The notes beneath the pieces are model-generated. The model was not told where the DNA came from. It searched no databases and saw only the letters and a list, made by a program, of their open reading frames with translations. Positions 6,001-59,395 of a stretch of 64,000 nucleotides of DNA are shown piece after piece. The stretch is taken from the NCBI GenBank assembly GCA_964016885.1, contig OZ024740.1, positions 30,132,001-30,196,000 of the forward strand. The letters run 5' to 3'. Each line of letters opens with the position of its first letter. Position 1 is the stretch's first letter. The translations under genes and the position numbers were made by a program. The DNA comes from Eledone cirrhosa. Taxonomy: Eukaryota.

Positions 6001-9000
6001 TATATATAGTATTGTAGGTGTTGTATATATAGTATTGTAGGTGTTGTATATATAGTATTGTAGGTGTTGTATATATAGTAATGTAGGCGTTGTATATATA
6101 CTATTGTAGTTGTATATATAGTAAGGTGGGCGTTATATATATAGTTTTGTAGGTGTTGTATATATAGTAAGGTAGGTGTTGTATATATAGTATTGTAGGT
6201 GTTGTATATATAGTAATGTAGGCGTTGTATATATAGTATTGTACGTGTTGTATATATTGTATTGTAGGTGTTGTATATATAGTACTGTAGGTGTTGTATA
6301 TATAGTACTGTAGGTGTTGTATATATAGTACTGTAGGTGTTATATATAGTATTGTGGGTGTGGTATATATAGTAATGTAGATGTTGTATATATAGTAATG
6401 TAGGCGTTGTGTATATAGTAATGTAGGCGTTGTATATATAGTATAGTAGGTGTTGTATATATAGTATTGTAGGCGTTGTATATATAGTATTGTAGGTGTT
6501 GTATATATAGTATTGTAGGTGTTGTATATATAGTATTGTAGGTGTTGTATATATAGTATTGTAGGCGTTGTATATATAGTATTGTAGGTGTTGTATATAT
6601 AGTATTGTAGGTGTTGTATATATAGTACTGTAGGTGTTGTATATATAGTACTGTAGGTGTTATATATAGTATTCTGGGTGTGGTATATATAGTAATGTAG
6701 ATGTTGTATATATAGTAATGTAGGCGTTGTATATATAGTAATGTAGGCGTTGTATATATAGTATTGTAGGTGTTGTATATATAGTATTGTAGGTGTTGTA
6801 TATATATAATATTGTAGGTATTGTATATATAGTATTGTAGGTGTTGTTTATATAGTATTGTAGGTGTTATATATATAGTATTGTAGGTGTTGTATATATA
6901 GTATTGTAGGTGTTGTATATATATAATATTGTAGGTATTGTATATATAGTATTGTAGGTGTTGTATATATAGTAAGGTAGGTGTTGTATATATAGTATTG
7001 TAGGTGTTGTATATATATAGTATTGTAGGTGTTGTATATATAGTAATGTAGGGGTTTTATATATAGTATGGTAGGTGTTGTATATATAGTATTGTAGGTG
7101 TTGTGTATATAGTAATGTAGGCGTTGTATATATAGTAATGTAGGTGTTATATATATAGTATTGTAGGTGTTGTATATATAGTATTGTAGGTGTTATATAT
7201 AGTATTGTAGGTGTTGTATATATAGTATTGTAGGTGTTATATATAGTAATGTAGGTGTTGTATATATAGTATTGTAGGTGTTGTATATATAGTATTGTAG
7301 GTGTTGTATATATAGTACTGTAGGTGTTGTATATATAGTAATGTAGGTGTTGTATATATAGTAATGTAGGTGTTATATATATAGTATTGTAGGTGTTGTA
7401 TATATAGTATTGTAGGTGTTATATATAGTATTGTAGGTGTTGTATATATAGTATTGTAGGTGTTGTATATATAGTATTGTAGGTGTTGTATATATTGTAT
7501 TGTAGGTGTTGTATATATAGTATTGTAGGTGTTGTATATATACTATTGTAGTTGTATATATAGTAAGGTGGGCGTTATATATATAGTATTGTAGGTGTTG
7601 TATATATAGTAAGGTAGGTGTTGTATATATAGTATTGTAGGTGTTGTATATATAGTATTGTAGGTGTTGTATATATAGTAATGTAGGCGTTGTATATATA
7701 GTATTGTAGGTGTTGTATATATAGTATTGTAGGTGTTGTATATATAGTATTGTAGGTGTTGTATATATAGTATTGTAGGTGTTGTATATATAGTATTGTA
7801 GGTGTTGTATATATAGTATTGTAGGTGTTGTATATATAGTATTGTAGGTGTTGTATATATAGTATTGTATGTGTTGTATATATAGTATTGTAGGTGTTGT
7901 ATATATAGTATTGTAGGTGTTGTATATATAGTATTGTAGGTGTTGTATATATAGTATTGTAGGTGTTGTATATATAGTAATGTAGTCGTTGTATATATAG
8001 TAATGTAGGCGTTGTATATATAGTATTGTAGGTGTTGTATATATAGTATTGTAGGTGTTGTATATATATAATATTGTAGGTATTGTATATATAGTATTGT
8101 AGGTGTTGTTCATATAGTATTGTAGGTGTTGTATATATAGTATTGTAGGTATTGTATATATAGTATTGTAGGTGTTGTATATATAGTAAGGTAGGTGTTG
8201 TATATATAGTATTGTAGGTGTTGTATATATAGTATTGTAGGTGTTGTATATATATAGTATTGTAGGTGTTGTATATATAGTAATGTAGGGGTTTTATATA
8301 TAGTATGGTAGGTGTTGTATATATAGTATTGTAGGTGTTATGTATATAGTAATGTAGGCGTTGTATATATAGTAATGTAGGTGTTATATATATAGTATTG
8401 TAGGTGTTGTATATATAGTATTGTAGGTGTTGTATATATAGTACTGTAGGTGTTATATATAATATTGTAGGTGTTATATATAATATTGTAGGTGTGGTAT
8501 ATATAGTAATGTACGTGTTGTATATATAGTAATGTAGGCGTTGTATATATAGTAAAGTAGGTGTTGTATATATAGTATTGTAGGTGTTGTATATCTAGTA
8601 ATGTAGGTCTTGTATATCTAGTAATGTAGGTGTTGTATATATAGTATTGTAGGTGTTGTATATATAGTATTGTAGGTGTTGTATATATAGTATTGTAGGT
8701 GTTGTATATATAGTAATGTAGGCGTTGTATATATATAGTATTGTAGGTGTTGTATATATAGTAATGTAGGTGTTGTATATATAGAATTGTAGGTGTTGTA
8801 TATATATAGTATTGTAGGTGTTGTATATATAGTATTGTAGGTGTTGTATATGTAGTATCGTAGGTGTTGTATATATAGTATTGTAGGTGTTGTATATATA
8901 GTATCGTAGGTGTTGTATATATAGTACTGTAGGTGTTATATATAGTATTGTAGGTGTGGTATATATAGTAATGTAGGTGTTGTATATATAGTATTGTAGG

Positions 9001-25862: not shown

Positions 25863-26046
25863 TTGGTGGATTGGCAGTATCGGTAGAGGGTCAGACACCA
25901 TGCTTTCCAGCACAGTTACGTCCCTTTACGATCTGAGTTCAAATCCCGCCGAGGTTGACTTTGCCTTTCATCCTTACGGGGTCGATAAAATAAAGTACCA
26001 GTAATGCACTGGGTTATTGCTGGCCTTTTGCCTAAAGTAGAAACAG
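25863..26046 (+). mobile_element. tRNA-derived SINE (octopus-type)
   Basis: A-box-like TGGCAGTATCGG, B-box GAGTTCAAATCC, then GCCGAGGTTGACTTTGCCTTTCATCCTTACGGGGTCGATAAAATAAAGTACCAGT. A homologous copy lies on the minus strand at 54741-54882. The family assignment is from memory. Confidence 0.8.
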
Positions 26047-26598: not shown

Positions 26599-26602
<4 letters not shown>

Positions 26603-26790
26603 AACGAGTAGGAACCCGACGGTTGAGCTCAAGCCGTTTCGACGCCTAATTCTAGTCCAGAATTAGCCGTCGAAACGGCTTGAGCTCAGCCGTCGGGTTC
26701 CTAGTCGTTCCTATTACCCACTCTACTATCCTAAGTATTGAGTACTTTGGTGCGTTATGGTCCACCTGGTTCCTTACCACATTTCCTTCG

Positions 26791-26793
<3 letters not shown>
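26599..26793 (+). mobile_element. Micro Penelope-like insertion: 55-bp inverted arms, 5-nt loop and 80-nt tail, inside (TA)n
   Basis: 26599-26653 is the near-perfect reverse complement of 26659-26713. The tail TTACCCACTCTAC...CATTTCCTTCGTTA is shared with the copies at 41724 and 55263. Contains a hammerhead 3' half: GAAA-CGGCT-TGAGCTC-AGCCG-TC. Confidence 0.75.
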
Positions 26794-28339: not shown

Positions 28340-31300
28340 CTATAGTCTGATGTAGAGTGAAGGCCCATTCACACGGGCCATTCTCGCCACTTTCACCCAT
28401 CTTTCATAGAAACGGCTGGGGTGCAGCACCTCTCTCTCCATCCTGATCCTTCTTCCGAAATGATATCGGAAGAAACGGACCAGTTGTTGGCCAGAGAGAA
28501 AGGTGCCCGACCTCAGTCCTTTCAGACGCGTCCACCATACAACCTCTTTCGCCATGGCTATTACGCACAGAAACACCGCCTCTGCTTCATCTTTGAAGGG
28601 GGAAGGCGGCTTGATCATTACAATAGACTCGGTGGTCAACCGGATCGGTCCCACCCTTGACAGCAGTTGTTCGACATAGCCCCACAGATCGGCTACGCCC
28701 GAGCAGTGTACTAATGCGTGTGCAACGGTTTCCTCGTCGCACACGCATCTGGGACAGATCTTTTTGGCGGGGTCCCTACCCGGGCGCCCGTGTCTGTAGA
28801 GCCTTTCTCGAACGGGTAAAGCCCCTCGGTAGCACTGCCAGGCCAGGGACTTCTGGAAGTTGTCCATAGGTCCCGGGCTGAATGTCCTACCGAACAGGCT
28901 GGCCAGTTCGTCCTCCTCCATGTCTAGGGCTTCTCCGAGGGCGTCGTCGCACCTGCTACGTACCAGCCCTCTATAGAATGTTGCGGTGGAGTCTCCACTG
29001 ATAACCGGATCCGCCTGCCAGAGGGCGGTGAGCGCCTGGGCACACTCAGTGTGCCAGGCGCCCAGTTTTCTCGGTCTTTGCTTGACCCAGGATTGCAGCT
29101 CGGTGAGTGAGACGAGTCTGGGAAAGGTTCGTCTCACAAACGAGGCCCACACCGGTTGTCCGGTGAGGAGTACGTAGAGGTGCCGTAGCCTTAATGCGTG
29201 TTTACGCATCATTAGCCACGGCATCCCCAGCCCTCCTTTCGAAGGGTGTTGACAGCAGATGGATCTCCTCACCATAGGAGCCCGCCTCTTCCAAAGGAAT
29301 TGGAAGAGCGCGCGCTCCATCTTGGTGAGGGTTTCCCTTGGGCAGGGCACTACGGTCAGGCGGTAGTAGATGACGGACGCTATGTAGGTGTTCGCCACCT
29401 CCGCCCGACCTTTCAGGGATAGTTTGCAACTGGCCCACTTCTGGGTCAGTGCAAACACCCTGTTCGTAACCTCCGCCCAGTTTTTCTCCACCTGGAGGTC
29501 CGGTCCGAACCAGACCCCGAGCAACTTCACCGGGCCCTCCGTCCAGCGTCCGACGACGCTATCGGAGGGCATCGGTCTGCCCCTCCACGTGCCGAGTTGC
29601 AAACCGATCGACTTGTCCCGGTTCAGCTTAGCCCCTGTGAACTTTTCGTACTCCTCCAGTAAGGTGCCGACCGCCTCGATTTCGGAGGCCGTCGACACCA
29701 TTACTGTCACGTCATCGGCGTAGGCCGACACCGCTTTCCGCAATCCCGGTTCCAAAGGGATGCCCTGCAACAACTCCAACTTCCGCAGTAGTGGCTCGAG
29801 AGTCAACACATACAGAAGGGAGGAGAGAGGGCACCCTTGTCGGATGGACCGCGCGATTTTGAACGGCTCCGAGAGGTAGCCGTTCACCTTGACCCTAGAG
29901 CAGATGCGGCTGCTGTGCATAGCAGTGATCCAGCCCCTGAAAACGGGTCCGAAGCCTGCCGCCGCTAGCACCGCATCCAGGTAACCATGGTCGACCCTAT
30001 CGAACGCCTTAGATTGATCCAAGTTGATCAGAGCCCCACCAAAGCCGGGTTCGTTCCCAACCCTCTCTATGATGTATCGCATGAGGTGGAGGTTGTCATG
30101 GATGGACCTGGACGGGATAGCGCATGTCTGCGCATCTCCCACCAGGTTGCCCACGACAAGCGCCAACCTCTTTGCTAGCACCTTGGCCAAAATCTGTAAC
30201 TCTGTATTTAGCAGAGTTATGTGCCTGAAGTTACTTATTTCGTCCCCCTTGTTCTCGTCCTTCCTCACTAGCGTGACTACGCCCTTGGTCACAGTACAGG
30301 GAATTCTCCCGTTCTGTTGCCAGTTGCAGTAGACCGCCTCGAGGAGATCGGGGAACAAGTCCGGCATAGCTAGATATAATTCGTAAGGAAGACCATCAAG
30401 ACCCGGGGATTTGCGTTTGCCGCATTGGCTCAGCACGTCCTCTATCTCAGCGGCCGAAATCGGCTCCTCGCAGGACTTCGCCTCCCTGTCCGAGAGGCGC
30501 GGCAGGCCGTCGAGGTATGGACCGAAGTCCACGTTCCCAACCGGCTCCCCGCCCCTCCCGAACAGTCGGGCAAAGTGCCTTTGAAAGGCCTCACACATCT
30601 GCTTAGGCTCAAGAATCGCCCGTCCATCCAGGTCTCGCAAAGACCGGATGGTGGATTTAGTTCCACTGTTGGCCTCTGTCACGCGGGCCCAGCTAACAGC
30701 TTTGGTCCCCTCGTTCCCTAGAGCACGTATTTTACTTCGGACAACGCAGCCTTCGTGCTTCGCGTCGAAAAACTGGCTCAAAGCCGTTCTCGACGCTAGC
30801 ACTCTGGCCACGTCGCCGCTTCTAATTTCCTCTTCTACTCTATCTATTAGCTCCCTTTCCTTCCTATTCCTATCCGCAGCTAGAACCTTACTAAATTCTA
30901 TCGAGACTACTCTAATCTCTCTCTTTAGAGATACCCACCACCTGCTGTTGACGATCGCTCCAGTCAACCGTTCCTTAACTAACGTACTAATCCGATTCCT
31001 GTAGGCTCTACTTGCCGGCAAGGACAAGTTGAGCTTCCAGTAACCGGGGCCCTGTCTATGAGTTCTGTCAAGGTTGACCATGCAGGTCACTAATTTGTGG
31101 TCTGAATAGCCAACAATGCGCATTTTTGGACAACTTAAAAAGTCCTTATCCTTAATTCTAACTAAGAACCTATCTAGGTACGACCTAGATGATCCGCTAC
31201 GATTTGCCCAAGTCCAGGTTGGCGCAGTCGGAAAATCTAGTCGATATCTATCGGCCAGGTCAAATCGACCGATTAACCCTTTGAGGCTATTACACCCCTC

Positions 31301-31777
31301 TCTATCGGGGCAGGCCCCTACGTAGTCCCAGCGTGCATCTAGGATACCATTCCAGTCCCCCACTAATAGCAAGGAGCGGGACGTCCCTAGAAAAGTCTCC
31401 AGACGATGGAAGAAGTCCGGCCGCATTGACCCGAAAGGGCCGTAGGCGGCTACCAACCTAAACGCTCCGCCTTTACCACTGCCAAGGTCCAGAACCACTA
31501 GTCGACCCTCCGGGTCCAAATGTACCATCTGTGTTGCGAGACCCAGATGTTTTTGCAGCAGAACGACAACTCCACCCCCACCTCCGGGCTGACAGAGAGA
31601 TGCGTGCATCTCAAAGTCATCAAAGGTGGGGGCCAGCTGTCGCACGTTGCTGATCCGGGCCTCGCAAATAACCATCACATCTATACGTTGTGACCTGAGG
31701 TCATTTAGAAGCATTGCTTGCTTCCAAGTTGAGCCCAGGCCACGCGCATTTAAACAGCCTACTCTTAGCATAGCCAT
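28340..31777 (-). CDS. LINE ORF2: AP endonuclease, reverse transcriptase and C-terminal CCHC zinc finger (about 1145 aa from the ATG at 31777)
   Basis: APE motifs CLNARGL, GDWN, SYLDRFLV and YSDHKLV. RT motifs KSPGLDG, LDQSKAFDRVDH, RQGCPLS and AYADDVT. Zinc finger CPRC...ETVAHALVHC. The frame is uninterrupted. Confidence 0.93.
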   Translation of the reverse strand: MAMLRVGCLNARGLGSTWKQAMLLNDLRSQRIDVMVICEARISNVRQLAPTFDDFEMHASLCQPGGGGGVVVLLQKHLGLATQMVHLDPEGRLVVLDLGSGKGGAFRLVAAYGPFGSMRPDFFHRLETFLGTSRSLLLVGDWNGILDARWDYVGACPDREGCNSLKGLIGRFDLADRYRLDFPTAPTWTWANRSGSSRSYLDRFLVRIKDKDFLSCPKMRIVGYSDHKLVTCMVNLDRTHRQGPGYWKLNLSLPASRAYRNRISTLVKERLTGAIVNSRWWVSLKREIRVVSIEFSKVLAADRNRKERELIDRVEEEIRSGDVARVLASRTALSQFFDAKHEGCVVRSKIRALGNEGTKAVSWARVTEANSGTKSTIRSLRDLDGRAILEPKQMCEAFQRHFARLFGRGGEPVGNVDFGPYLDGLPRLSDREAKSCEEPISAAEIEDVLSQCGKRKSPGLDGLPYELYLAMPDLFPDLLEAVYCNWQQNGRIPCTVTKGVVTLVRKDENKGDEISNFRHITLLNTELQILAKVLAKRLALVVGNLVGDAQTCAIPSRSIHDNLHLMRYIIERVGNEPGFGGALINLDQSKAFDRVDHGYLDAVLAAAGFGPVFRGWITAMHSSRICSRVKVNGYLSEPFKIARSIRQGCPLSSLLYVLTLEPLLRKLELLQGIPLEPGLRKAVSAYADDVTVMVSTASEIEAVGTLLEEYEKFTGAKLNRDKSIGLQLGTWRGRPMPSDSVVGRWTEGPVKLLGVWFGPDLQVEKNWAEVTNRVFALTQKWASCKLSLKGRAEVANTYIASVIYYRLTVVPCPRETLTKMERALFQFLWKRRAPMVRRSICCQHPSKGGLGMPWLMMRKHALRLRHLYVLLTGQPVWASFVRRTFPRLVSLTELQSWVKQRPRKLGAWHTECAQALTALWQADPVISGDSTATFYRGLVRSRCDDALGEALDMEEDELASLFGRTFSPGPMDNFQKSLAWQCYRGALPVRERLYRHGRPGRDPAKKICPRCVCDEETVAHALVHCSGVADLWGYVEQLLSRVGPIRLTTESIVMIKPPSPFKDEAEAVFLCVIAMAKEVVWWTRLKGLRSGTFLSGQQLVRFFRYHFGRRIRMEREVLHPSRFYERWVKVARMARVNGPSLYIRL

Positions 31778-31801
31778 GTTGGTGGTGAAGAGAAAAGGCA
31801 C

Positions 31802-33582
31802 TTACCTCTCTGCGTCCCGGGTATCGGGCTGCACAATTTCCATTAGGGTGGGGGATGGGTTGTTGGGTGGGGTGGTGGTTTGTGGAAGTGTGGGGGCATC
31901 AGTGTGTTGTGTGGTTGGGGAGCTTGGAGTTGTGAGGGTGTTTGGGGAGGGGGTGGGATAGTTTTTTAGGAGGACGCGGTTAATGGGCCCGACGCAGGGG
32001 GGACCCACGTCCTCTTTAAAATTGTTTTTTAAAGTTTTATAGGTGTCCTGTGGGGCCTTAATCATTTTGAGGTGGGGGAAATCCCCTGCCTGGGTGAAGT
32101 TAGGCCCTTGGGTTTTTATTAGATTGTTGTTGTACACAATGTTTAACAGTTTTTTGTTTCTTGTATTTATGTATGTGTATGCATGTTTTTGTTTTTGTGT
32201 GGTGTTTTTTGTTTGCTGTTGTGAGCTCTTTTGTGTTGGTGTCAGTGTTATGTTTTGGGGAGGGGTTTTTTTCATTTGTGTGTCTGAGGTGTGTTTTCTT
32301 TTTTTTCTTTTGATTGTGTGGAAGTGCTCCTCCTCGTCTGACGACGAACTAGGGTCATCTTCCGCGTTGGAGGGGAGGGGTATATTTTCGGGTTGTGTTT
32401 GCGGTACGGGTGTTTTGGAAATTGTTTTTGTTTTTTGAGTGGAGGGGATGGGTTGGACATTGTTTTGTTTTGGTTTGAGCTGTGGTGGTTGTTTTTGTAG
32501 TGGTAGTTGTGGTGATTGTGTTGGTTGTGCAGTTGTTGGTGGTGTAGGCAGGATTGGGGTTTTCTTATTAAGTTGGGGACAGACAGCCCTCAGGTGACCT
32601 CTGGTTCCGCAGAGGTAACACGAGGGCCGTCTACCCTCAACGGTAATGTTGATGAAGGTTAGATCATCCAGTATGACGCGTTCAGGGATCTGGGCGATCC
32701 TTTCGGGCCTCATTTGAACTACAAGTTCGAGGCTCGTTCCACTGAACGCGTCACCCGATGCCTTTCCCATGGACACCAGCATGTCATCCTCCAGGTCCAG
32801 AAAACCTGTCAAAACCCACCATATGTCCATAATCGGCAGGATGGTGTGGATTTTTATTTTTTGTGTTCTTCTACCCATGTACGTAGGGTAGAAGGTTTAT
32901 GCGGTGGATGTGATTGGTTTGATGGACAGTTTCACTGCTGTGTCCCTGTCCTTCATGAGAATGGATAGACTCCCGTAGAGTCTATCCTTCTGAATGAAGG
33001 TGATGTCCTTCATGACGTCTTTTAAAACCAGCTCTATCTCGCTCTGTGATGGTTGAGCTGGTTTTTTACTTTTGTTCGAGATTGTCCTAAACATGACCGT
33101 GTTTAGGAGTCTCTGGCTTTTTAGTTCCGGGGGGGAATGGATTGTGAATTTTCTCCGTACACTATATATTTTTTCGCATCCGCCAGTAGCTCCTTCGCTT
33201 TTGTTATATCTACTGGCAGATAGTCGAGGGTTTTCCTTGTCGTCTCGGCGAAGGAGAAATTTTGTTTGTTTGTGTTGTTGTTGTCGTTGGTGGTGTTGTT
33301 GTTATCATTGTTGTTGTTGTCACCGTTATTGGTCTTGTTGTTGTTATTGTTATTGTTATTGGTGTTGCTTTCGTCCGTCGCATTGTTGTTGTTGTTGCTG
33401 TTGCTGCTGGTTCTTTGGGTTGTTGCCATGGCAACGTCAAGTTGTCGGTTAACAGGTGGAGAGAATTCTTCCTCTGGCTGACCTATCTTCTTGACCTCTG
33501 CTACTGTGACAGTGGCAGGGGGAAGCTGTAAGTTCATCTTCCCCTTTCCTCCTTCGAATTTTGGTGAAGAAGCTTCGGCCAT
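31802..33582 (-). pseudogene. LINE ORF1 (gag-like, CCHC zinc knuckle) disrupted by one frameshift and one stop
   Basis: Three ORF-track pieces: 33121-33609, 32897-33094 and 31802-32878. The last two are in frame across a TAA; the first is in another frame. Knuckle CYLCGTRGHLRAVC; poly-Asn stretch from an (AAC)n tract. Confidence 0.8.
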
Positions 33583-41204: not shown

Positions 41205-41404
41205 NNNNNNNNNNNNNNNNNNNNNNNNNNNNNNNNNNNNNNNNNNNNNNNNNNNNNNNNNNNNNNNNNNNNNNNNNNNNNNNNNNNNNNNNNNNNNNNN
41301 NNNNNNNNNNNNNNNNNNNNNNNNNNNNNNNNNNNNNNNNNNNNNNNNNNNNNNNNNNNNNNNNNNNNNNNNNNNNNNNNNNNNNNNNNNNNNNNNNNNN
41401 NNNN
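41205..41404. other. Assembly gap (200 N)
   Basis: Run of N; the true size is unknown. Confidence 0.99.
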
Positions 41405-41723: not shown

Positions 41724-41726
<3 letters not shown>

Positions 41727-41873
41727 CGAAGGAAATGTGGTAAGGAACCAGATCGACGATAACGCACCAAAGTACTCAATACTTAGGGTAGTAGAGTGGG
41801 TAATAGGAACGAGTAGGCAGAATTAGCCGTCGAAACGGTTTGAGCTCAGCCGTCGGGGTCCTACTCGTTCCTA
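41724..41873 (-). mobile_element. Micro Penelope-like insertion, second copy (full inverted arm, short direct remnant, tail)
   Basis: Reverse complement reads TAGGAACGAGTAGGACCCCGACGGCTGAGCTCAAACCGTTTCGACGGCTAATTCTG / CCTACTCGTTCCTA / tail. (TA)n on both sides. Confidence 0.75.
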
Positions 41874-43360: not shown

Positions 43361-45482
43361 ACTAGTAATAAAATTATTGTACACGCAGATAAAACTAATA
43401 ACATATACAGCCTAGATTATAATACTTATAGAAAGTTTATATATAATGAACTACATAAAAGCTACAAAAAAACCACCTTGAAAAACTTAGAAGATATTAA
43501 TGTAGAGGGTTATAATATAGTGTCTAAACTAGGACTGCAGAGGCATACACAACCTTTCACTCCGAACCCCCCTAGATTCTCTCTGAAGGACCATAAGGAG
43601 AACTTCATCAGCAACCCCACGATAAGACTTATCTTCCCTTCCAAGTCCGACATTGGTATTATCAGCAAGAAGATTTTGGATAAAATCATCCCACAAATTA
43701 AACACAAGATACACCTTAAACAATGGGGAAATACGGGTGAAGTGATTGAATGGTTCAAGGATATCAAGAATAATAAGAACAAAAAATTTGTTCAATTTGA
43801 TATCAATTCATACTACACCTCTATTTCCCCTATCCTATTAAATAAGGCACTTATCATGGCCATGAGCAATAGCGACCTGACTAGAGCCCAGGTTGATGTC
43901 ATCCTTGCGGCCCGTAAAACCATAATCACCTTCGAGGACCAACTATGGACACGCAAGGATACGCACAACAACTTCGACATAACCATGGGATCTAGTGACT
44001 CGGCGCAGGTCACTGATTTGGTCGGCCTATACCTCCTCAATGAAATCCATAAGGACCTCCCTTACCTCAACGGTGGTTTGTACCGCGATGATGCACTTCT
44101 ACTTATAGAATATAAAAAATTTAATATAGAAAGAACTAGAAAAAATTTTGCATAAGACATTCAAAAACTTTAACCTTAGTATCACCATGGACAAAAACAC
44201 TAAAAATGTTAACTTCCTAGACGCCACACTATACCTAGACTCAAAAATATATACACCTTTCCATAAGCCTAACGAGAAACTTATTTACGTAGATACCAAG
44301 TCTAATCACCCTAGATCAATATTAAACTCTATCTCTAAGGGGGTGTCCAATAGAATCTCTAGTCTGTCCTATGACGCAAACATATTTAGCAAAAACTCAC
44401 AATATTACAATCAAGCATTAGCTAGCTCCGGCCATAATATAGAAATTGAGTTCCTACCTAAGAAAACACATAGCTACAACATCATCTCGCACAACATGTC
44501 CATGGGGAAACCTAATAATAGGAATAGCAACCACAAGTGCACCAAAGCGGAGGGTGCCACCGGAAGTAACCATTACCATGGAAACTACTGTGGGGCCTTA
44601 GGAGGAAGCAACACACCAAACACTAAAAGCAAAAATAGAAGAAGAAATAATACATTTTTCAACCCTCCTTTCAACCTAAATGTCTCCACCAACATACCTA
44701 GGGCTTTCTTCTCACTACTAGATAAAAACTTCCCTCTAGGACACAAGTACCACAACCTCTTAAACAAAAACACCATTAAAATCTCATACTCTACGACACC
44801 TAACTTAGCATACCACATAGCTAGCAGCAATAATAGTAAAATTAGTTCTTACTTCCAACAAACAAAATCACAACGGGATGCAAACCCTCTAAATACCACT
44901 GTAGCAAGCAACCATAGCAACGGCAGTAACAATAGAAATAACACTAGTATAAGTAATAACACCAGGGTTGTCAACCCGAACGCCCAAAATCCTATAGCTA
45001 CCACACAGACTTCCGCACTGCATTATAACCAGCGGACTAACGCACAGGATAATTGTAACTGTAGAGCTAACAGAACCTGCCCTTTAGATAAAAAATGCCT
45101 AACCAAGGATATCATATACTCATGCACCGTCACGACTAACAACTCTTCAGAAACCTATGTAGGCTCCACTTCTAACTGCTTCAAAATCAGATATAATTCG
45201 CACATCCACTCGTTCAAAAAGCACAGCCTAGCAAACTCCACCTCACTTTCTAGCTACATACACTATCTAAAATCTAAAAATAAACCATACACACTCAAAT
45301 GGGAAGTGATAGGCAGCGCGACCTCGTACAAACCACCTAATAAATTTTGTAACCTCTGTATACTAGAGACACACAATATTATCTTCTCCAACCGTAACCT
45401 ACTTAACAAAAAATCTGAGGTGTTTGCAACTTGCCAGCACCGCTTCAGACATTCCTTCCAAAACTTTAAGCCCAATATATAG
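43361..45482 (+). pseudogene. Penelope-like RT plus GIY-YIG endonuclease (about 700 aa), with a single frameshift near 44148
   Basis: ADKTNNIY, FVQFDINSYYTSI, FDITMGSSDSAQVTDLVGL, GLYRDD, NFLDATL, SNHP, linker CNCRANRTCPLDKKC, IIYSC...YVGST, RYNSH, CNLCILE, LNKKSE...CQH. The two ORF-track pieces overlap at an A-run. Confidence 0.92.
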
Positions 45483-47639: not shown

Positions 47640-50600
47640 AAAACAACAGAGAGCGAGAGGAGCCAGAGAGAAGAGGAGAGAACGAAAACTCTAAGTCATA
47701 TCTTGTTGAGTTAACTTAACAATTGAGATGAAATGAATAAATAAAATAAGAGATGTTAATAATCATGAATGGAATATACATATATAATATCAGAAATTAA
47801 TCATTGTTTAAATATGATTAGATGTTTAGTTAATCATTTAAAAATTGAGATCAATATATTAAAAATTGGGATCTATACATTAAGAAATTCATATATTGCT
47901 AGAGAACTACATATCATATAACACGTATACACACGCAAAAATACATATAAATATATATACACTCTTATAAAATACATAACATATCTAACTACGTATATAA
48001 TATATACATACAAAACATAAAGGATTCTTTAATTTAATTTAAGATATAGGAATCTTTAAAATGTTATAATTGTTAAGATATTAAAGGAAATTTTATGTTA
48101 TACACACTTTATGTTATTAAACAAAATTTTTTATATAAGTTTTATAAGATTACCTGTTATGTATTTATGGCTGTTAATTATATGTCTATCTGTCAGGAAT
48201 CATTGGGATAATCACTATACATAAGTGCAATCAAATTGTATGGATATACACGCACATGCATATACACAATTCTCACATACATATATATACATGTGTGTGT
48301 ATGCTCAGCCAATATGTTGATACGCATCACGCATACATATACATACAGACAGACATACATTCATAAAAACGCATAGAACATATGTACATGTATGTCAATA
48401 CACACATATGCATATATACTCACATATAGAGAGAAGTATATATCAATACAGTACATAGTATAATTGAGTACATAAAATACAAAAGGATTATATTACAATT
48501 TGGAAATATAATTATAAGCAATATAACTTTAAAAGCAATACAATTTTAAAATATTATAGAATATTTTAAGTTATAATTTCAAAATAATAGTATGTTTAAT
48601 AGATTTAGTATAGAAATTTATCTTACGTATATTTAACTCAAAATTTTGAAAGGATAAACATTCGAAAATAGGAGAAGCTATCGGAACAATAAGAAAACAA
48701 TAAAAAAAATAAGAAATAGGAAATATTTTCTCCTTTCAAGAGCTCTCAATATATTTCTCTAGAATAGTTTATTATATTTATATTTATTTATATTTAGGAA
48801 GAAAAGTTATTTTTACTTGAGTGTATAATCAGTAAAAAAAGATGAAGGAATCTAATGATTTATCGACAGGTTTCATATATTAATAAAATTAAGTAATTAA
48901 TTATATACTACATTTTAAATTTACATTTATATTTAAACTAAACGTTGAGTTTAATCTATGTCTGCAGCAACTGAATAAATTATTCCTTAAGTTCAGGGAA
49001 TTTTTGTTCTTTAATATAAAGAATATTTCCTCTATACAAAGATCGCAATTTTCTGAAGAGGAGTTAAAAGGAGTAGCTTTTGAAATAATATTCCAAATCA
49101 ACGAATATTCAACGTTCTTTAGTTTTAGGTCTCATAATAGGCTAGATAGAGAAGTTGAAAATTTTTTGTTTGGATCTGTAAAAGAATTTTTATGATTATT
49201 GAAGCGAGATTTAAACACTGTGGAAGTAGATCCCACATAATTAAATGAATTTAAATTAGTTTTTACATTACAATTATATACTACATTTTTAGCTAAGCAA
49301 TTGTTATTTAACGGACAGTTAGATTTATTTCTACAGTTACATTTATCAGATTGAATATTGCTTGGGTTATTATTGGTATTTTGGTTAGGTTTTAAATTTC
49401 TATTATTAATTCTATTAATATTTTGCGCTAAATTTTTGATGGAAGAATAAGTTCATTTTATAGTATGTCTATTAAAAATTGAGTAATATCTATGTGTTCT
49501 AGAGAAGCATTTGTCAAGAGCTTTAAAAAATAGTTTAGCAATAGGGGTTTTAATATTTAATGAGAAAAGAGGAGCGAACCATAATATGTTCCTAGTTCTA
49601 TTTCTTTTTCGGCTTTCGGAATTAATGTAAGGTTTTCTATTATAGTTGTTAACATTGTTACCATAGTTAAAATTGTTACGATTATGGTTAGTTGTTATAT
49701 TATTATTATTATCGATGTATTTAATTTTATTTCTATACCCAGCTCTACCTAACGCTTCGTTGTAATAATGTGCTTTTTCATCAAATATATTCTTATTAGC
49801 TGAAATTCTCGAAATTCGTTCTTGTACAGAGTTCACTATAGTATTTTTAACGGATCTGGGGTGATTAGAGTTAAAATTGACGTAATTTAAGTTCTCATTT
49901 AGTTTGTGAAATGGATAATGAAGACATGTGTTAAGATTTAGTGTTACATCTAGAAAATTGACTATTTTATGGTTATTCTCTATTTCTACTTTTAGATTAA
50001 GGCAATTAAAAAATTGTATAATTTGTTTTCTTTTTCTATTTAGTTCACAGTTATTATTTTCTATAAGTAAAAGCATTTCGTCACGATATAAACCTCCGGT
50101 TATCTCAGGTATTTTTCTATGTAGAGAATTAATTATAAATAGGCCCACAAGATCCGTTACCTGAGCGGAATGTTATGTCGAAATTATTATTTCTATCTGC
50201 CCTAGTCCCGATAATATAATGTGCATTTCATTGCTAGTTATGTCTGTATGTTTAAATGCGTAAGTTAGTGCGTTATTCAGTAGATTAGGAGTGATAGATA
50301 AGTAATAGTTAGCAATATCCAACTGAATAAACTTATTATTATAGTTATATTTAATTTCTTTAAACCAATCGATAACTTCACTAGTTCCCTTCCATAATTT
50401 TAAATAAGATAAATTAGATAAATTCTTAATTTGTGGTATTATTCTGTCCAGAATATTTTTGTTAAGTCTGCCAAGGTCCGATTTAGATGGTGTAATTAAA
50501 CTGACTGGTAAATCAGTTTCGAAGTTCCTTTTATGATCCTCTCTCTATATCTTTCTCTCTCTGTTGTTTTGGTCTCTCTCTCTCTCTTTTCTCACTCTCT

Positions 50601-52233: not shown

Positions 52234-53312
52234 TTCACTCCTGGCTGGCTGGTTGTTAATTAAAGGTGTCACTTTGGCCTCATATACAACGGATTTGGTG
52301 TTACATTTGCCCTGTAATGGGCATTTATCCTGCTTCCTGCAACTGCATCCTGGATGTATTCTCGTACGATTAGAATTAGTGATTTTAGACTTCATTGATG
52401 GGCAACAAGAGTAACTGATTTTAACTACATTTCTATTAAATATCTTATAATATCTATGATTAGGAGGAAAATGTCTGTCTAAGAGGTCAAGGAATTTCCT
52501 TCCTACATTAGTTTTGACAGTTAGAGAGAAGGGACGTGTAAACCAAATAATTTTCCTTTTCCTATTATTGTGGTTAGTTTTAGGGGGAGGAGTAGGTAAA
52601 TAATTAATGTGTTCTGTAAATCCGCTGTTATTAAGGGCTTTATTATAATATGTGTAGAGACGAAGATAAGGTAAAAATCCTACGGCTAATGTTGGGAATA
52701 ATATTTTTAAAAACTATAGGGGGATGGCAAGACTCTTTGTGTATATATCTAAGATTTTCGTTAGGTTTATGATAAGGTTTAAAAGAGGCAGTAAGTAGAT
52801 GAAGATTAATGTCAAGAAAGTTAGCATTGGTAAGGTTCGTATCTATAGTAATTTTAAGGTTAAGATTAGCAAAAGTATTGATTAAATCTTTACGGAATGT
52901 ATCAAGGTTATGGCCGTTGGTGGTATGAGAAACTGCCAATCCGTGGTCACGGTATAAACCGATATTATGGGAAGGAAATTTCTCTTTGAGGGTGTGGAGA
53001 AGGAATAATCCTACTAAGTCACACACATCCGCACTGTCATATGAACCCATTGCAACATCAAAAGAGTTTTCAGGGTTTGACTTTTTAACCCAAATACTTT
53101 CATTAGTAAAGAGTAGAGTTTTCTAGCATGAAAGATAATGTCTTCTTCTAATTTAGAAATATTAATGAAGGGTCTTGCAAAATCTAAGGCTTTAGTTAAT
53201 AAGGAAACGGTAATAGAGGGGTAAAAGTCAACAATATCAAATTGGGTAAATCTACACTTATTTTTACCTTGTATATTATTAAACCAAGAAATAACAGAGG
53301 ATGTATTTAACT
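52231..53312 (-). pseudogene. Penelope-like element D: RT-linker-EN fragment with frameshifts
   Basis: FTQFDIVDFYPSI, MGSYDSADVCDLVGL, GLYRDH, NFLDI, CHPP, CSCRKQDKCPLQGKC, VVYEA. Cut by (TA)n inside the endonuclease domain. Confidence 0.87.
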
Positions 53313-55262: not shown

Positions 55263-55264
<2 letters not shown>

Positions 55265-55405
55265 GGAACCAGTAAGACCCCGACAGCTGAGCTCAAGCCG
55301 TTTCGACGGCTAATTCTGGACTAAATTACCCACTCTACTACCTCAAGTATTGAGTACTTTGGTGCGTTATGGTCCACCTGGTTCCTTACCACATTTCCTT
55401 CGTTA
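55263..55405 (+). mobile_element. Micro Penelope-like insertion, third copy (inverted arm joined directly to the tail)
   Basis: TAGGAACCAGTAAGACCCCGACAGCTGAGCTCAAGCCGTTTCGACGGCTAATTCTGGACTAAA followed by the shared tail. (TA)n on both sides. Confidence 0.75.
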
Positions 55406-58117: not shown

Positions 58118-59395
58118 GTAGTAAATTTCCTAGATATAACTTTAGATTTAGCTACGGGTATCTACCAACCTTACCATAAACCTAACCAAAACTTACATTA
58201 CATACACTCACAATCTAATCACCCTAAATCTATCCTTAAAAACCTTGCATATAATATATCACTTAGAATTTCTAACCTTTCTTCTAACCAAGATGTATTT
58301 GATAAAAATGCGACCTTCTATAACGAAGCTCTAGATAGAAGTGGCCACAAAAATAGATTAGAGTATATACCCTCTACTAAAAATACTGAAAGCATACAAC
58401 ATAATATTACCAACAAACACCAAATGAAAAGTACACACCTAAATGCCACCCACACTATACCCCAAAATACCAAATCTTCTAATATAAAGTATAGTAACTC
58501 TCAAAAAACTACTCATCATACAACTCTAATAAATATTAATAATAAAACTCCTAATAAAAAGGATAAAACACCTAAATCTACAAATATAACTAAAAATAGT
58601 TGTGGTGAGATCATTAACATTAATCCTCCTAGTAAAAATCACGATACAACCTATAAAAATAATAAAAATAATAAACAACATAGAAACCGTAATAGACGGG
58701 TTACTTGGTATAATGCTCCTTTTAATTTACAAGTTAAGGATAATATTGCTAAAAAATTTTTTTATATCCTTGAGAAAAACTTCCCGCCAAACCACAAATA
58801 CCATCAAATCTTAAATAGGTCTACAGTTAAATTCTCATACTCTACAACAAATAACATAAAACAAAATATAAGTGCCTATAATGCATATAAATGTAAGAAA
58901 ACCATAAGTATACCACCAGTACATCAAATTAACCATAATATCTCCTCAAATACAGAATTAACGAAAGGATGTAACTGTAGAAACAAAGCAAACTGCCCAT
59001 TAAAAGGGAATTGTCTTGTTAACAACATAGTCTATAAATGTAATGTTAAAACTAAAGATTCTATTTGCTCATATATAGGAGCTACCTCTAACAATTTTAA
59101 GACAAGGTTTAATACCCACAAGCATAGTTTTAAAAATGCCGCACTGGCTAATACAACATCTCTAGCAGAAAAAATCAATAGTTATAAAAATAAGAATATA
59201 GAATATGATTTGACCTGGAGTGTGCTCAAAAGAGCCACCCCTTATCAAAATAATAGAAATGAATGTAGATTATGTTCCCAAGAACTATTTGAAATAATGA
59301 AGTCTAAGGATATCTTATTAAATAAACGACAGGAATTAATTATATCGTGTAATCATAAACTAAAAAAAACATTTAAATATTATAAACCTAATTAA
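58118..59395 (+). pseudogene. 5'-truncated Penelope-like ORF (RT thumb, linker, GIY-YIG), frame still open
   Basis: VVNFLDITL...YHKPN...SNHPKS is in frame with the 58424-59395 ORF, which contains WYNAPF, CNCRNKANCPLKGNC, IVYKC...YIGAT, RFNTH, CRLCSQE and LNKRQE...CNH. Confidence 0.9.

Follow-up and report, generated by a model that had tools for sequence, protein, structure and literature searches.

How did a family of very short hairpin-plus-tail insertions come to occupy (TA)n tracts of the Eledone cirrhosa genome, and why do the arms of these hairpins end so close to one another inside half a hammerhead ribozyme? The question arose in 64,000 nucleotides of contig OZ024740.1 (assembly GCA_964016885.1, forward strand, positions 30,132,001 to 30,196,000), hereafter the window. 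An initial annotation, made from the sequence alone, had listed four relatives there.

Hairpin stubs in the window

All four relatives were found; each starts at the same TAGGAA and lies in a TA-rich or (TA)n tract. Positions within the element are numbered from S1, the base after TTCCTA at which every inverted arm begins, with upstream positions negative. Copy 1 (26599..26793, plus strand) is a whole hairpin-plus-tail stub in (TA)n. Its inverted arm (26599..26653, minus strand) is anchored at S1, is 55 nt long with its inner end at -55, and is identical to the direct arm at 52 of 55 positions. The direct part (26653..26713, plus strand) runs from -61 to -1, ending at S1, and carries in order the end of loop II, the 3’ strand of stem II, GAAA, stem III, GUC and the 3’ strand of stem I. 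Positions 26672..26694 (plus strand) make up the 3’ half of a hammerhead core, with GAAA, GUC and between them stem III and its palindromic loop, as judged from the sequence and from the full motif present in long copies. The predicted cleavage site (-20/-19), at which arm ends form a single-base peak genome-wide, falls at 26694..26695 (plus strand). A-60, the putative main transcription start within an initiator-like TTAGTC, is at 26654 (plus strand); A-55 and A-64 are further start candidates, the latter absent from this copy. The 80-nt tail (26714..26793, plus strand) is the parent sequence between S1 and a second site, S2, and opens with a small bulged hairpin that is found again after S2 in the parent. 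As annotated, the direct sequence holds GAAA, stem III (ACGGCT/AGCCGT) with the loop TGAGCTCA, and GTC (GUC in RNA) at matching positions, and the first half of the core (CUGANGA) is absent.

Copy 2 (41724..41873) has the opposite orientation (minus strand). It pairs a 56-nt S1 arm reaching -56 (41818-41873) with an S2 arm made of the tail plus a 14-nt remnant (41724-41817); 41724 is its tail end, not its arm start. A 200-base N gap (41205-41404) lies ~320 nt before it. Copy 3 (52013..about 52061, plus strand) is a solo inverted S1 arm of 49-50 nt without a tail; it is ~83% identical and belongs to another, divergent subfamily. In copy 4 (55263..55405, plus strand) a 64-nt inverted S1 arm reaching -64 (55263-55326) is joined straight to the tail (55326-55405). 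Measured arm lengths are thus 49-64 nt rather than the 50-63 nt first given.

The window contains several other repeats. Positions 1 to about 25770 consist of a 23-bp satellite whose GC skew is extreme, followed at about 25890-26010 by a SINE-like repeat, whose 3’ motif we take to be that of cephalopod genomes. An apparently intact two-ORF non-LTR element (28340-32896, minus strand) encodes a 1153-aa protein with APE endonuclease, RT and zf-RVT domains and a 364-aa upstream ORF. Four other Hydra-like ORF remnants of Penelope-like elements (PLEs), 30-53% identical to the parent protein described below, are present at 43364-45473 (plus), 48940-50541 (minus), 52270-53310 (minus) and 58121-59389 (plus). 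Around or near these remnants are inverted repeats of 98-100% identity (56039-56877/63023-63861, 42395-42660/51291-51556 and 47297-47586/50602-50891), the largest of 839 nt at 100%; these long inverted repeats are probably inverted pLTRs of other young families.

An abundant Hydra-clade parent

A 35-mer from the arm has 12,122 exact matches in the 3.0-Gb assembly, and a 28-mer from the tail end followed by TATA has 26,367. Since the reversed control patterns gave 0 matches in both cases, these hits are not due to chance, and as counts of exact patterns they are lower bounds. Among the first 30 loci fetched, 5 continue upstream into parent sequence. The parent unit consists of an ORF, a 1.25-kb 3’ UTR, the hammerhead motif, S1, the 80-nt tail, S2, ~90 nt and the ATG. 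In long copies spanning the ORF start, S1-tail-S2 is joined to the ORF start and the ATG is at +171, which places S1 171 nt and S2 91 nt before it. Locus L251 retains an uninterrupted 740-aa ORF of the RT plus GIY-YIG type, with an S1-to-S1 unit of 3,573 nt. The Penelope-like origin suggested earlier, and the RT-GIY-YIG parent ORF that it predicted, are thereby borne out.

The L251 protein has 952 homologues among 7,995 scored candidates. Its 739 residues after the first Met matched 0 Pfam families, and a search of PDB sequences with the same residues gave no relevant match; one homologue matched Pfam GIY-YIG below the cut-off. An AlphaFold model (mean pLDDT 83) has telomerase RTs (TERTs) as its best fold matches, and YIG occurs at residue 605. 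RWR and DKT are present in L251, and among 24 aligned proteins RW[KR] is conserved in 24 and DKT in 23. The CxCX5C linker is found in 22 of these 24, including L249, L253 and L031, while in L251 the third C is replaced by F. A CxxC precedes E (CNLCSEE) and a CxH follows N (NKKDELVTACKH); no CCHH was seen on reading the parent ORF by eye. The diagnostics given for the Hydra clade in the available text of PMC8557442 are RWK, DKT instead of DKG, CxCX5C, CxxC and CxH beside E/N, and no CCHH. We therefore place the element in this clade, and an assignment to Neptune, our first guess, was dropped once these diagnostics matched. At 3.57 kb the parent exceeds the length of Hydra-clade elements, which that source describes as “generally” <3 kb without stating this as diagnostic. 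By its protein motifs and fold match, then, the source of the stubs is classified as a very abundant, (TA)n-targeting Hydra-clade PLE.

Two fixed outer ends and two cDNAs

Two sites 80 nt apart, S1 and S2, fix the outer ends: every arm starts at one or the other, and the tail is the gap between them. We scored 526 S1/S2 ends, keeping overlapping loci separate: 324 adjoin TA repeats, 200 run on into parent sequence and 2 are of another kind. The (TA)n preference among non-continuing ends (324/326) comes from a scan that itself required ends in TA. After merging, 191 insertions were parsed into 106 with an S1 and an S2 arm, 1 with two S2 arms and 84 solo insertions, many of which are missed partners. 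S1 and S2 are both followed by T, giving a TAT microhomology with the target, and the small bulged hairpin has the same shape after both sites, with a stability close to that of shuffled sequences (z about -1).

Either arm can carry sequence that is absent from the other, as with the ORF in L031, L250 and L251 and in copy 4, which indicates that both arms were copied from RNA. The same observation led us to reject the folding back of a single cDNA as the general route, although fold-back may explain some junctions with a 4-14-nt overlap. In 30 of 36 pairs the 7-mer diagnostic of the subfamily is the same in both arms, where 9.6 such pairs would be expected. Locus L031 also has ~40 nt in inverted form common to its 3’ UTR and its ORF-proximal junction (6080-6120 and 8725-8760), which is the switch point of a long insertion.

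A hammerhead motif in long copies

Long copies contain, in order, ACCCC, UUGANAA or CUGAGAA, stem II, a 36-40-nt loop II, GAAA, stem III (5-6 bp with a palindromic loop), GUC and GGGGU. The initial annotation had expected longer copies to complete the hammerhead with a CUGANGA core. The complete hammerhead-shaped motif is indeed there, with a different core: in 46 spanning copies, a sample enriched by our own searches, CTGAGAA occurs 29 times, TTGAGAA 14, TTGATAA 2 and TTGAAGA 1, and CUGANGA 0 times. A further core, TTGAAAA, is present in L189. The type I pattern YUGANRA...GAAA...UH with helices I-III and G10.1-C11.1 is matched, and, as one would expect of a hammerhead core, U3-A8 is retained even where position 7 changes. 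A U3-A8 variant has been published for PLE hammerheads of Cercyon (PMC4209133, as excerpted). Constrained hammerhead folds are feasible, lying 0.8-6.1 kcal/mol above the minimum-energy fold in five long copies; no hammerhead match was obtained from Rfam for the window or five long copies at E up to 1 or 10. Exact genome copies number 918 for the mismatched C3-A8 core and 649 for U3-A8; like the Rfam result and the fold energies, the mismatch in the commoner core speaks against a hammerhead. The C3-A8 subfamily, which includes the intact-ORF copy (L251, 4921-5040), has thus multiplied despite its mismatched core. Self-cleavage of the parent motif after NUH is predicted, with the single-base peak of genomic ends at the expected site as an indirect sign of it.

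The main inner stop

To describe the inner ends we took the first 100 tail ends on one contig (C1), all of which were fetched, blind to arm length. Of their S2 arms, 20 stop within the tail, 3 at -1 to -17, 6 at -18 to -20, 12 at -21 to -51, 51 at -52 to -66, 0 at -67 to -120 and 8 beyond. The clustering of arm ends first noticed in the window is seen in this sample too: of the 59 S2 arms long enough to include -52, 51 end by -66, and none of the remaining 8 ends within the following 54 nt. About 5 ends placed at -64 are overestimates due to a near-palindrome, yet they remain within -52 to -66. S1 partners, detected for 58 of the 100 insertions, end at -53 to -66 in 43 cases. About 92 of the 100 insertions are stubs, long copies making up about 8%. 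The stop is common to both arms although their primers lie ~60 and 140 nt away from it, so it is a coordinate on the RNA and not a distance from the primer.

This coordinate falls within loop II, on the 5’ side of the stem II 3’ strand, where the RT is already past the GC-rich stems I, III and II. The fold ahead of it is weak (-4.5 to -7.4 kcal/mol over ~60 nt), and individual stops are spread over ~12 nt. A small imperfect hairpin at -64 to -51 explains some fold-back-like junctions. When long copies pass the region a second time, 0 of 13 that reach -52 stop by -66 (Fisher p 3e-9 against the first pass; the 13 come from 30 loci chosen for the presence of an ORF start), so the sequence of the stop region is not in itself a stop. 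The idea, raised in the initial annotation, that the ribozyme fold fixes the stop point is not supported, given the weak hairpin ahead, the missing second-pass stops and an untemplated G at the stop.

This G is found at A-60, where 193 arms join (TA)n directly. The preceding base, counted by hand among 100 listed junctions, is G in 65, C in 23 and A in 12; because the search pattern did not admit T, these proportions refer to non-T junctions. None of the 46 spanning long copies has a G before A-60 (0/46), and C is templated in one subfamily. Hairpins whose arms end at -59 and -60 carry an inserted G in 19 cases and an A in 3 among 100 listed of 668. The corresponding count at a control site in the tail is 1, a number that demonstrates enrichment at -60 and does not bear on whether the G is specific to it. 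Junctions at -64 are mixed (128 matches, about 40 G and 60 T among 100 listed), and single-base insertions in the locus sample are G or C in 5 of 8, a small number.

An untemplated G at A-60 is as expected for the start of a capped RNA. A-64, A-60 and A-55 are each preceded by a pyrimidine, and the hexamers TCATTT and TTAGTC presumably resemble the insect initiator; some subfamilies have not retained such initiator-like hexamers (L184, L189). No DPE was seen by eye at +28. If A-64 is taken as +1, what we assume to be a Drosophila MTE-like 12-mer at +18 agrees at 9/12 positions, too weak a match to use. An extra G at the 5’ junctions of full-length L1 insertions has been attributed to the cap (in the available part of PMC11702581), and the pLTR of the D. 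virilis Penelope element contains an internal promoter without a TATA box (PMC2377424, available text).

A second peak at the predicted cleavage site

The initial annotation did not include a second peak, at the predicted hammerhead cut. Filtered end counts genome-wide are 30 at -13, 43 at -18, 254 at -19, 33 at -20 and 7 at -25. The end patterns demand three non-matching upstream bases, and the -18 filter provides a like-for-like control; the patterns at -13, -20 and -25 use other letter pairs, and that at -25 spans more bases. The base that immediately follows GUC is -19. Inspection of 20 matches at -19 gave 19 true ends and 1 small deletion (L274). In 70 hairpins both arms end at -19 with one base between them, and this base is A or T in 41 of the 50 listed. 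Addition of A or T is typical of run-off at an uncapped end.

Six copies jump into the ORF, four from exactly -19 and two from -60, in a search for starts at -19, -59 and -60 only. The jump targets fall in a narrow zone of the ORF (+822 to +933 in L069, L071, L082, L087 and L093; +632 in L265), which could reflect a recurrent 3’ end of the RNA in that zone, with a possible bias from selection of these loci for an ORF start. One prediction of the ribozyme-cut reading failed. Stops at -19 are no rarer in a loop-I subfamily linked to the C3-A8 core (70/100 versus 32/45 in the background, p=1; the subfamily separates this core imperfectly), and this counts against cleavage as the origin of the -19 ends.

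Proposed mechanism and alternatives

The parent layout, the pairing of an S1 with an S2 arm, the variable junctions, the two stop peaks, the G at A-60 and the A/T at -19 are, in our view, most probably the result of twin priming followed by run-off at RNA 5’ ends, mainly at a capped start in loop II and to a lesser extent at the predicted hammerhead cut; we put the probability of this reading at about 0.68. The endonuclease would nick both strands of a (TA)n tract, and one 3’ end would prime at S1 and the other at S2, assisted by the TAT microhomology, with the hairpins after the two sites as the likely start signal. Both cDNAs would then run off the 5’ end of the RNA, as a rule at a capped start between -55 and -64 and less often at the predicted cut (-19). 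End-joining of the two cDNAs to each other would give a hairpin, and a solo arm would arise when a single cDNA is joined to the (TA)n end on the far side. Since transcription would start inside the ribozyme, the capped mRNA would carry half a hammerhead at its 5’ end and would not remove its own cap in cis.

Long copies need a further step. In full-length copies the upstream pLTRs span -127 to beyond -1200, and an end at -60 is never seen (0/13). A simple capped, unit-length mRNA with priming at the 3’ end predicts ends at -60, so a second class of template has to be assumed, and as none of the full-length copies ends there this template would need to be endless. It could be a ribozyme-made circle, read-through multimers or the product of repeated template jumps. 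This step is the least supported part of the mechanism. A more far-reaching reading, which we offer tentatively and think somewhat less probable than its negation, treats the stubs as a fossil record of replication: the hammerhead is split by the transcription start, the stubs are strong-stop cDNAs of an RT dimer, cleavage occurs in vivo, and only cut or re-joined templates yield copies of more than unit length. The dimer would prime both target strands at the twin hairpins near the capped 5’ end, and the more-than-unit-length copies would keep the element alive.

Several alternatives share parts of this scheme. Twin priming could be correct and the main stop be a roadblock on intact RNA, formed by a bound element protein or by structure in loop II, with -19 a pause before stem III. 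Both peaks do lie inside the hammerhead motif, stem III begins two bases beyond -19, and there is the imperfect hairpin at -64 to -51 with its fold-back-like junctions. The Poseidon hammerhead cleaves only with protein (PMC11167929, available text), which makes a protein footprint plausible, and such a footprint could act on the first pass only. We nevertheless regard a roadblock as improbable, though it is the strongest of the alternatives: the RT has by then traversed the GC-rich stems I, III and II and faces a weak hairpin, 0/13 copies stop on the second pass, and the G at A-60, the A/T at -19 and the jumps from exact points are signs of a template end. The lesser peak is also at -19 and not at -20 (254 vs 33). 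Somewhat less probable again are template 5’ ends that are real but uncapped, left at -52 to -66 by an endonuclease or by 5’-3’ decay up to a bound protein. Such ends would explain equally well why both arms run off, why stops scatter over 12 nt, why none occurs on a second pass and why copies jump, and the initiator-like motifs vary among subfamilies. The identity of the added base speaks for a cap instead, with G before A-60 in 65 of 100 listed solo junctions and in 19 vs 3 of the -59/-60 hairpins, while the uncapped -19 end gains A or T (41 of 50 listed).

Mobilization of a short non-autonomous, SINE-like RNA, transcribed from the stubs through an internal promoter, had been raised in the initial annotation. 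That ~92/100 insertions are stubs would fit, as would an internal promoter that travels along with them. Such an RNA is however not needed, given that the main stub variants have long counterparts; the stubs share no common fixed junction and end at S2 without the following hairpin, the likely start signal, and we consider this route very unlikely. We give still less weight to a fixed MITE or to long palindromes that later collapsed by central deletion, and rejected both. The hairpin form and TA targets are MITE-like, but MITEs have a fixed length, TIRs at both ends and a DNA-transposon origin, while here almost every copy has its own junction, a tail is present on one side only, the parent is a retroelement, and the same end positions recur in solo arms that directly adjoin (TA)n. 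The original view of the insertions as independent, truncated retrotransposition products rather than a MITE thus stands on the variable junctions and the retroelement parent. Nor are they non-LTR retrozymes, which are arrays of non-coding units repeated head to tail, every unit containing a complete hammerhead (10.64898/2026.07.22.740005, available text); the stubs are head-to-head or solo and contain half a motif.

Relation to known elements

The product that we favor, two run-off cDNAs primed at S1 and S2, has a parallel in retroviral minus-strand strong-stop DNA, in which priming near the RNA 5’ end is followed by run-off and a jump, with a tRNA primer and an integrase. Unlike in retroviruses, nicked chromosomal DNA would here prime both strands and the product would be integrated directly, with neither tRNA primer nor integrase. 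Twin priming of L1, in the part of PMC11702581 available, is alike in that two cDNAs from opposite nicks are end-joined and an extra G occurs at the 5’ junction; L1 inversions are however non-overlapping, with a variable second primer site, whereas here both sites are fixed and the arms consequently duplicate each other.

The inverted truncated copy, the one-sided tail and the (TA)n target are already published for the Hydra clade (PMC8557442, available text). Elements such as Hydra-1_Obim and Penelope-13_HM, as described there, share with ours the motifs of the single ORF, the (TA)n target, a hammerhead near the 3’ end, an inverted 5’-truncated copy at the 5’ end and the one-sided tail. They differ in being generally <3 kb with a tail of 30-40 nt (here 3.57 kb and 80 nt), and in the CUGANGA cores and short loops given in File S2 of that paper (here U3-A8 or C3-A8 and a 36-40-nt loop II); the available text contains no distribution of stop sites for them. 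By-eye comparison indicates that the present family is distinct from Hydra-1_Obim of octopus. In the available text of PMC11167929, Poseidon_Ac has two internal RT start sites that bracket the tail, an AT-rich target and a hairpin at the start site, and both strands are nicked and extended in vitro; paired S1 and S2 arms are the genomic product expected from such two-site, two-strand extension. The Poseidon_Ac start sites are within the ORF, in contrast to sites 91 and 171 nt before the ATG here. The same text describes no reads ending at the hammerhead site and cleavage that is dispensable in vitro, whereas our genomic ends peak at the predicted cut. Minimal PLE hammerheads, including that of Cercyon (PMC4209133, as excerpted), are likewise type I motifs in the pLTR with U3-A8 covariation and a palindromic helix III; motif pairs on opposite strands and a proposed circular template are further likenesses. 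The present motif differs from them in its longer helix III and its large loop II with a putative transcription start. A literature search of partial coverage returned no report of strong-stop stubs, or of insertion ends at a cap or hammerhead cut, in PLEs, and the available part of an octopus repeat paper (PMC13282606) contains nothing on hairpin stubs.

If the proposed mechanism is true, the ends of the stubs are rare in-animal evidence on how PLEs are copied. They would bear on how PLEs, the sister group of telomerase, come to have inverted copies, tails and tandem pLTRs. They would also bear on hammerhead cutting in vivo in PLEs, for which Cervera and De la Pena (2014; PMC4209133, as excerpted) described in vivo evidence as absent; the genome examined here offers two sharp, countable footprints with exact coordinates. 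Roughly half of the at least 26,000 insertions are short hairpins and may be a source of dsRNA in host transcripts. Any genome with many PLE stubs could be analyzed with the same read-out.
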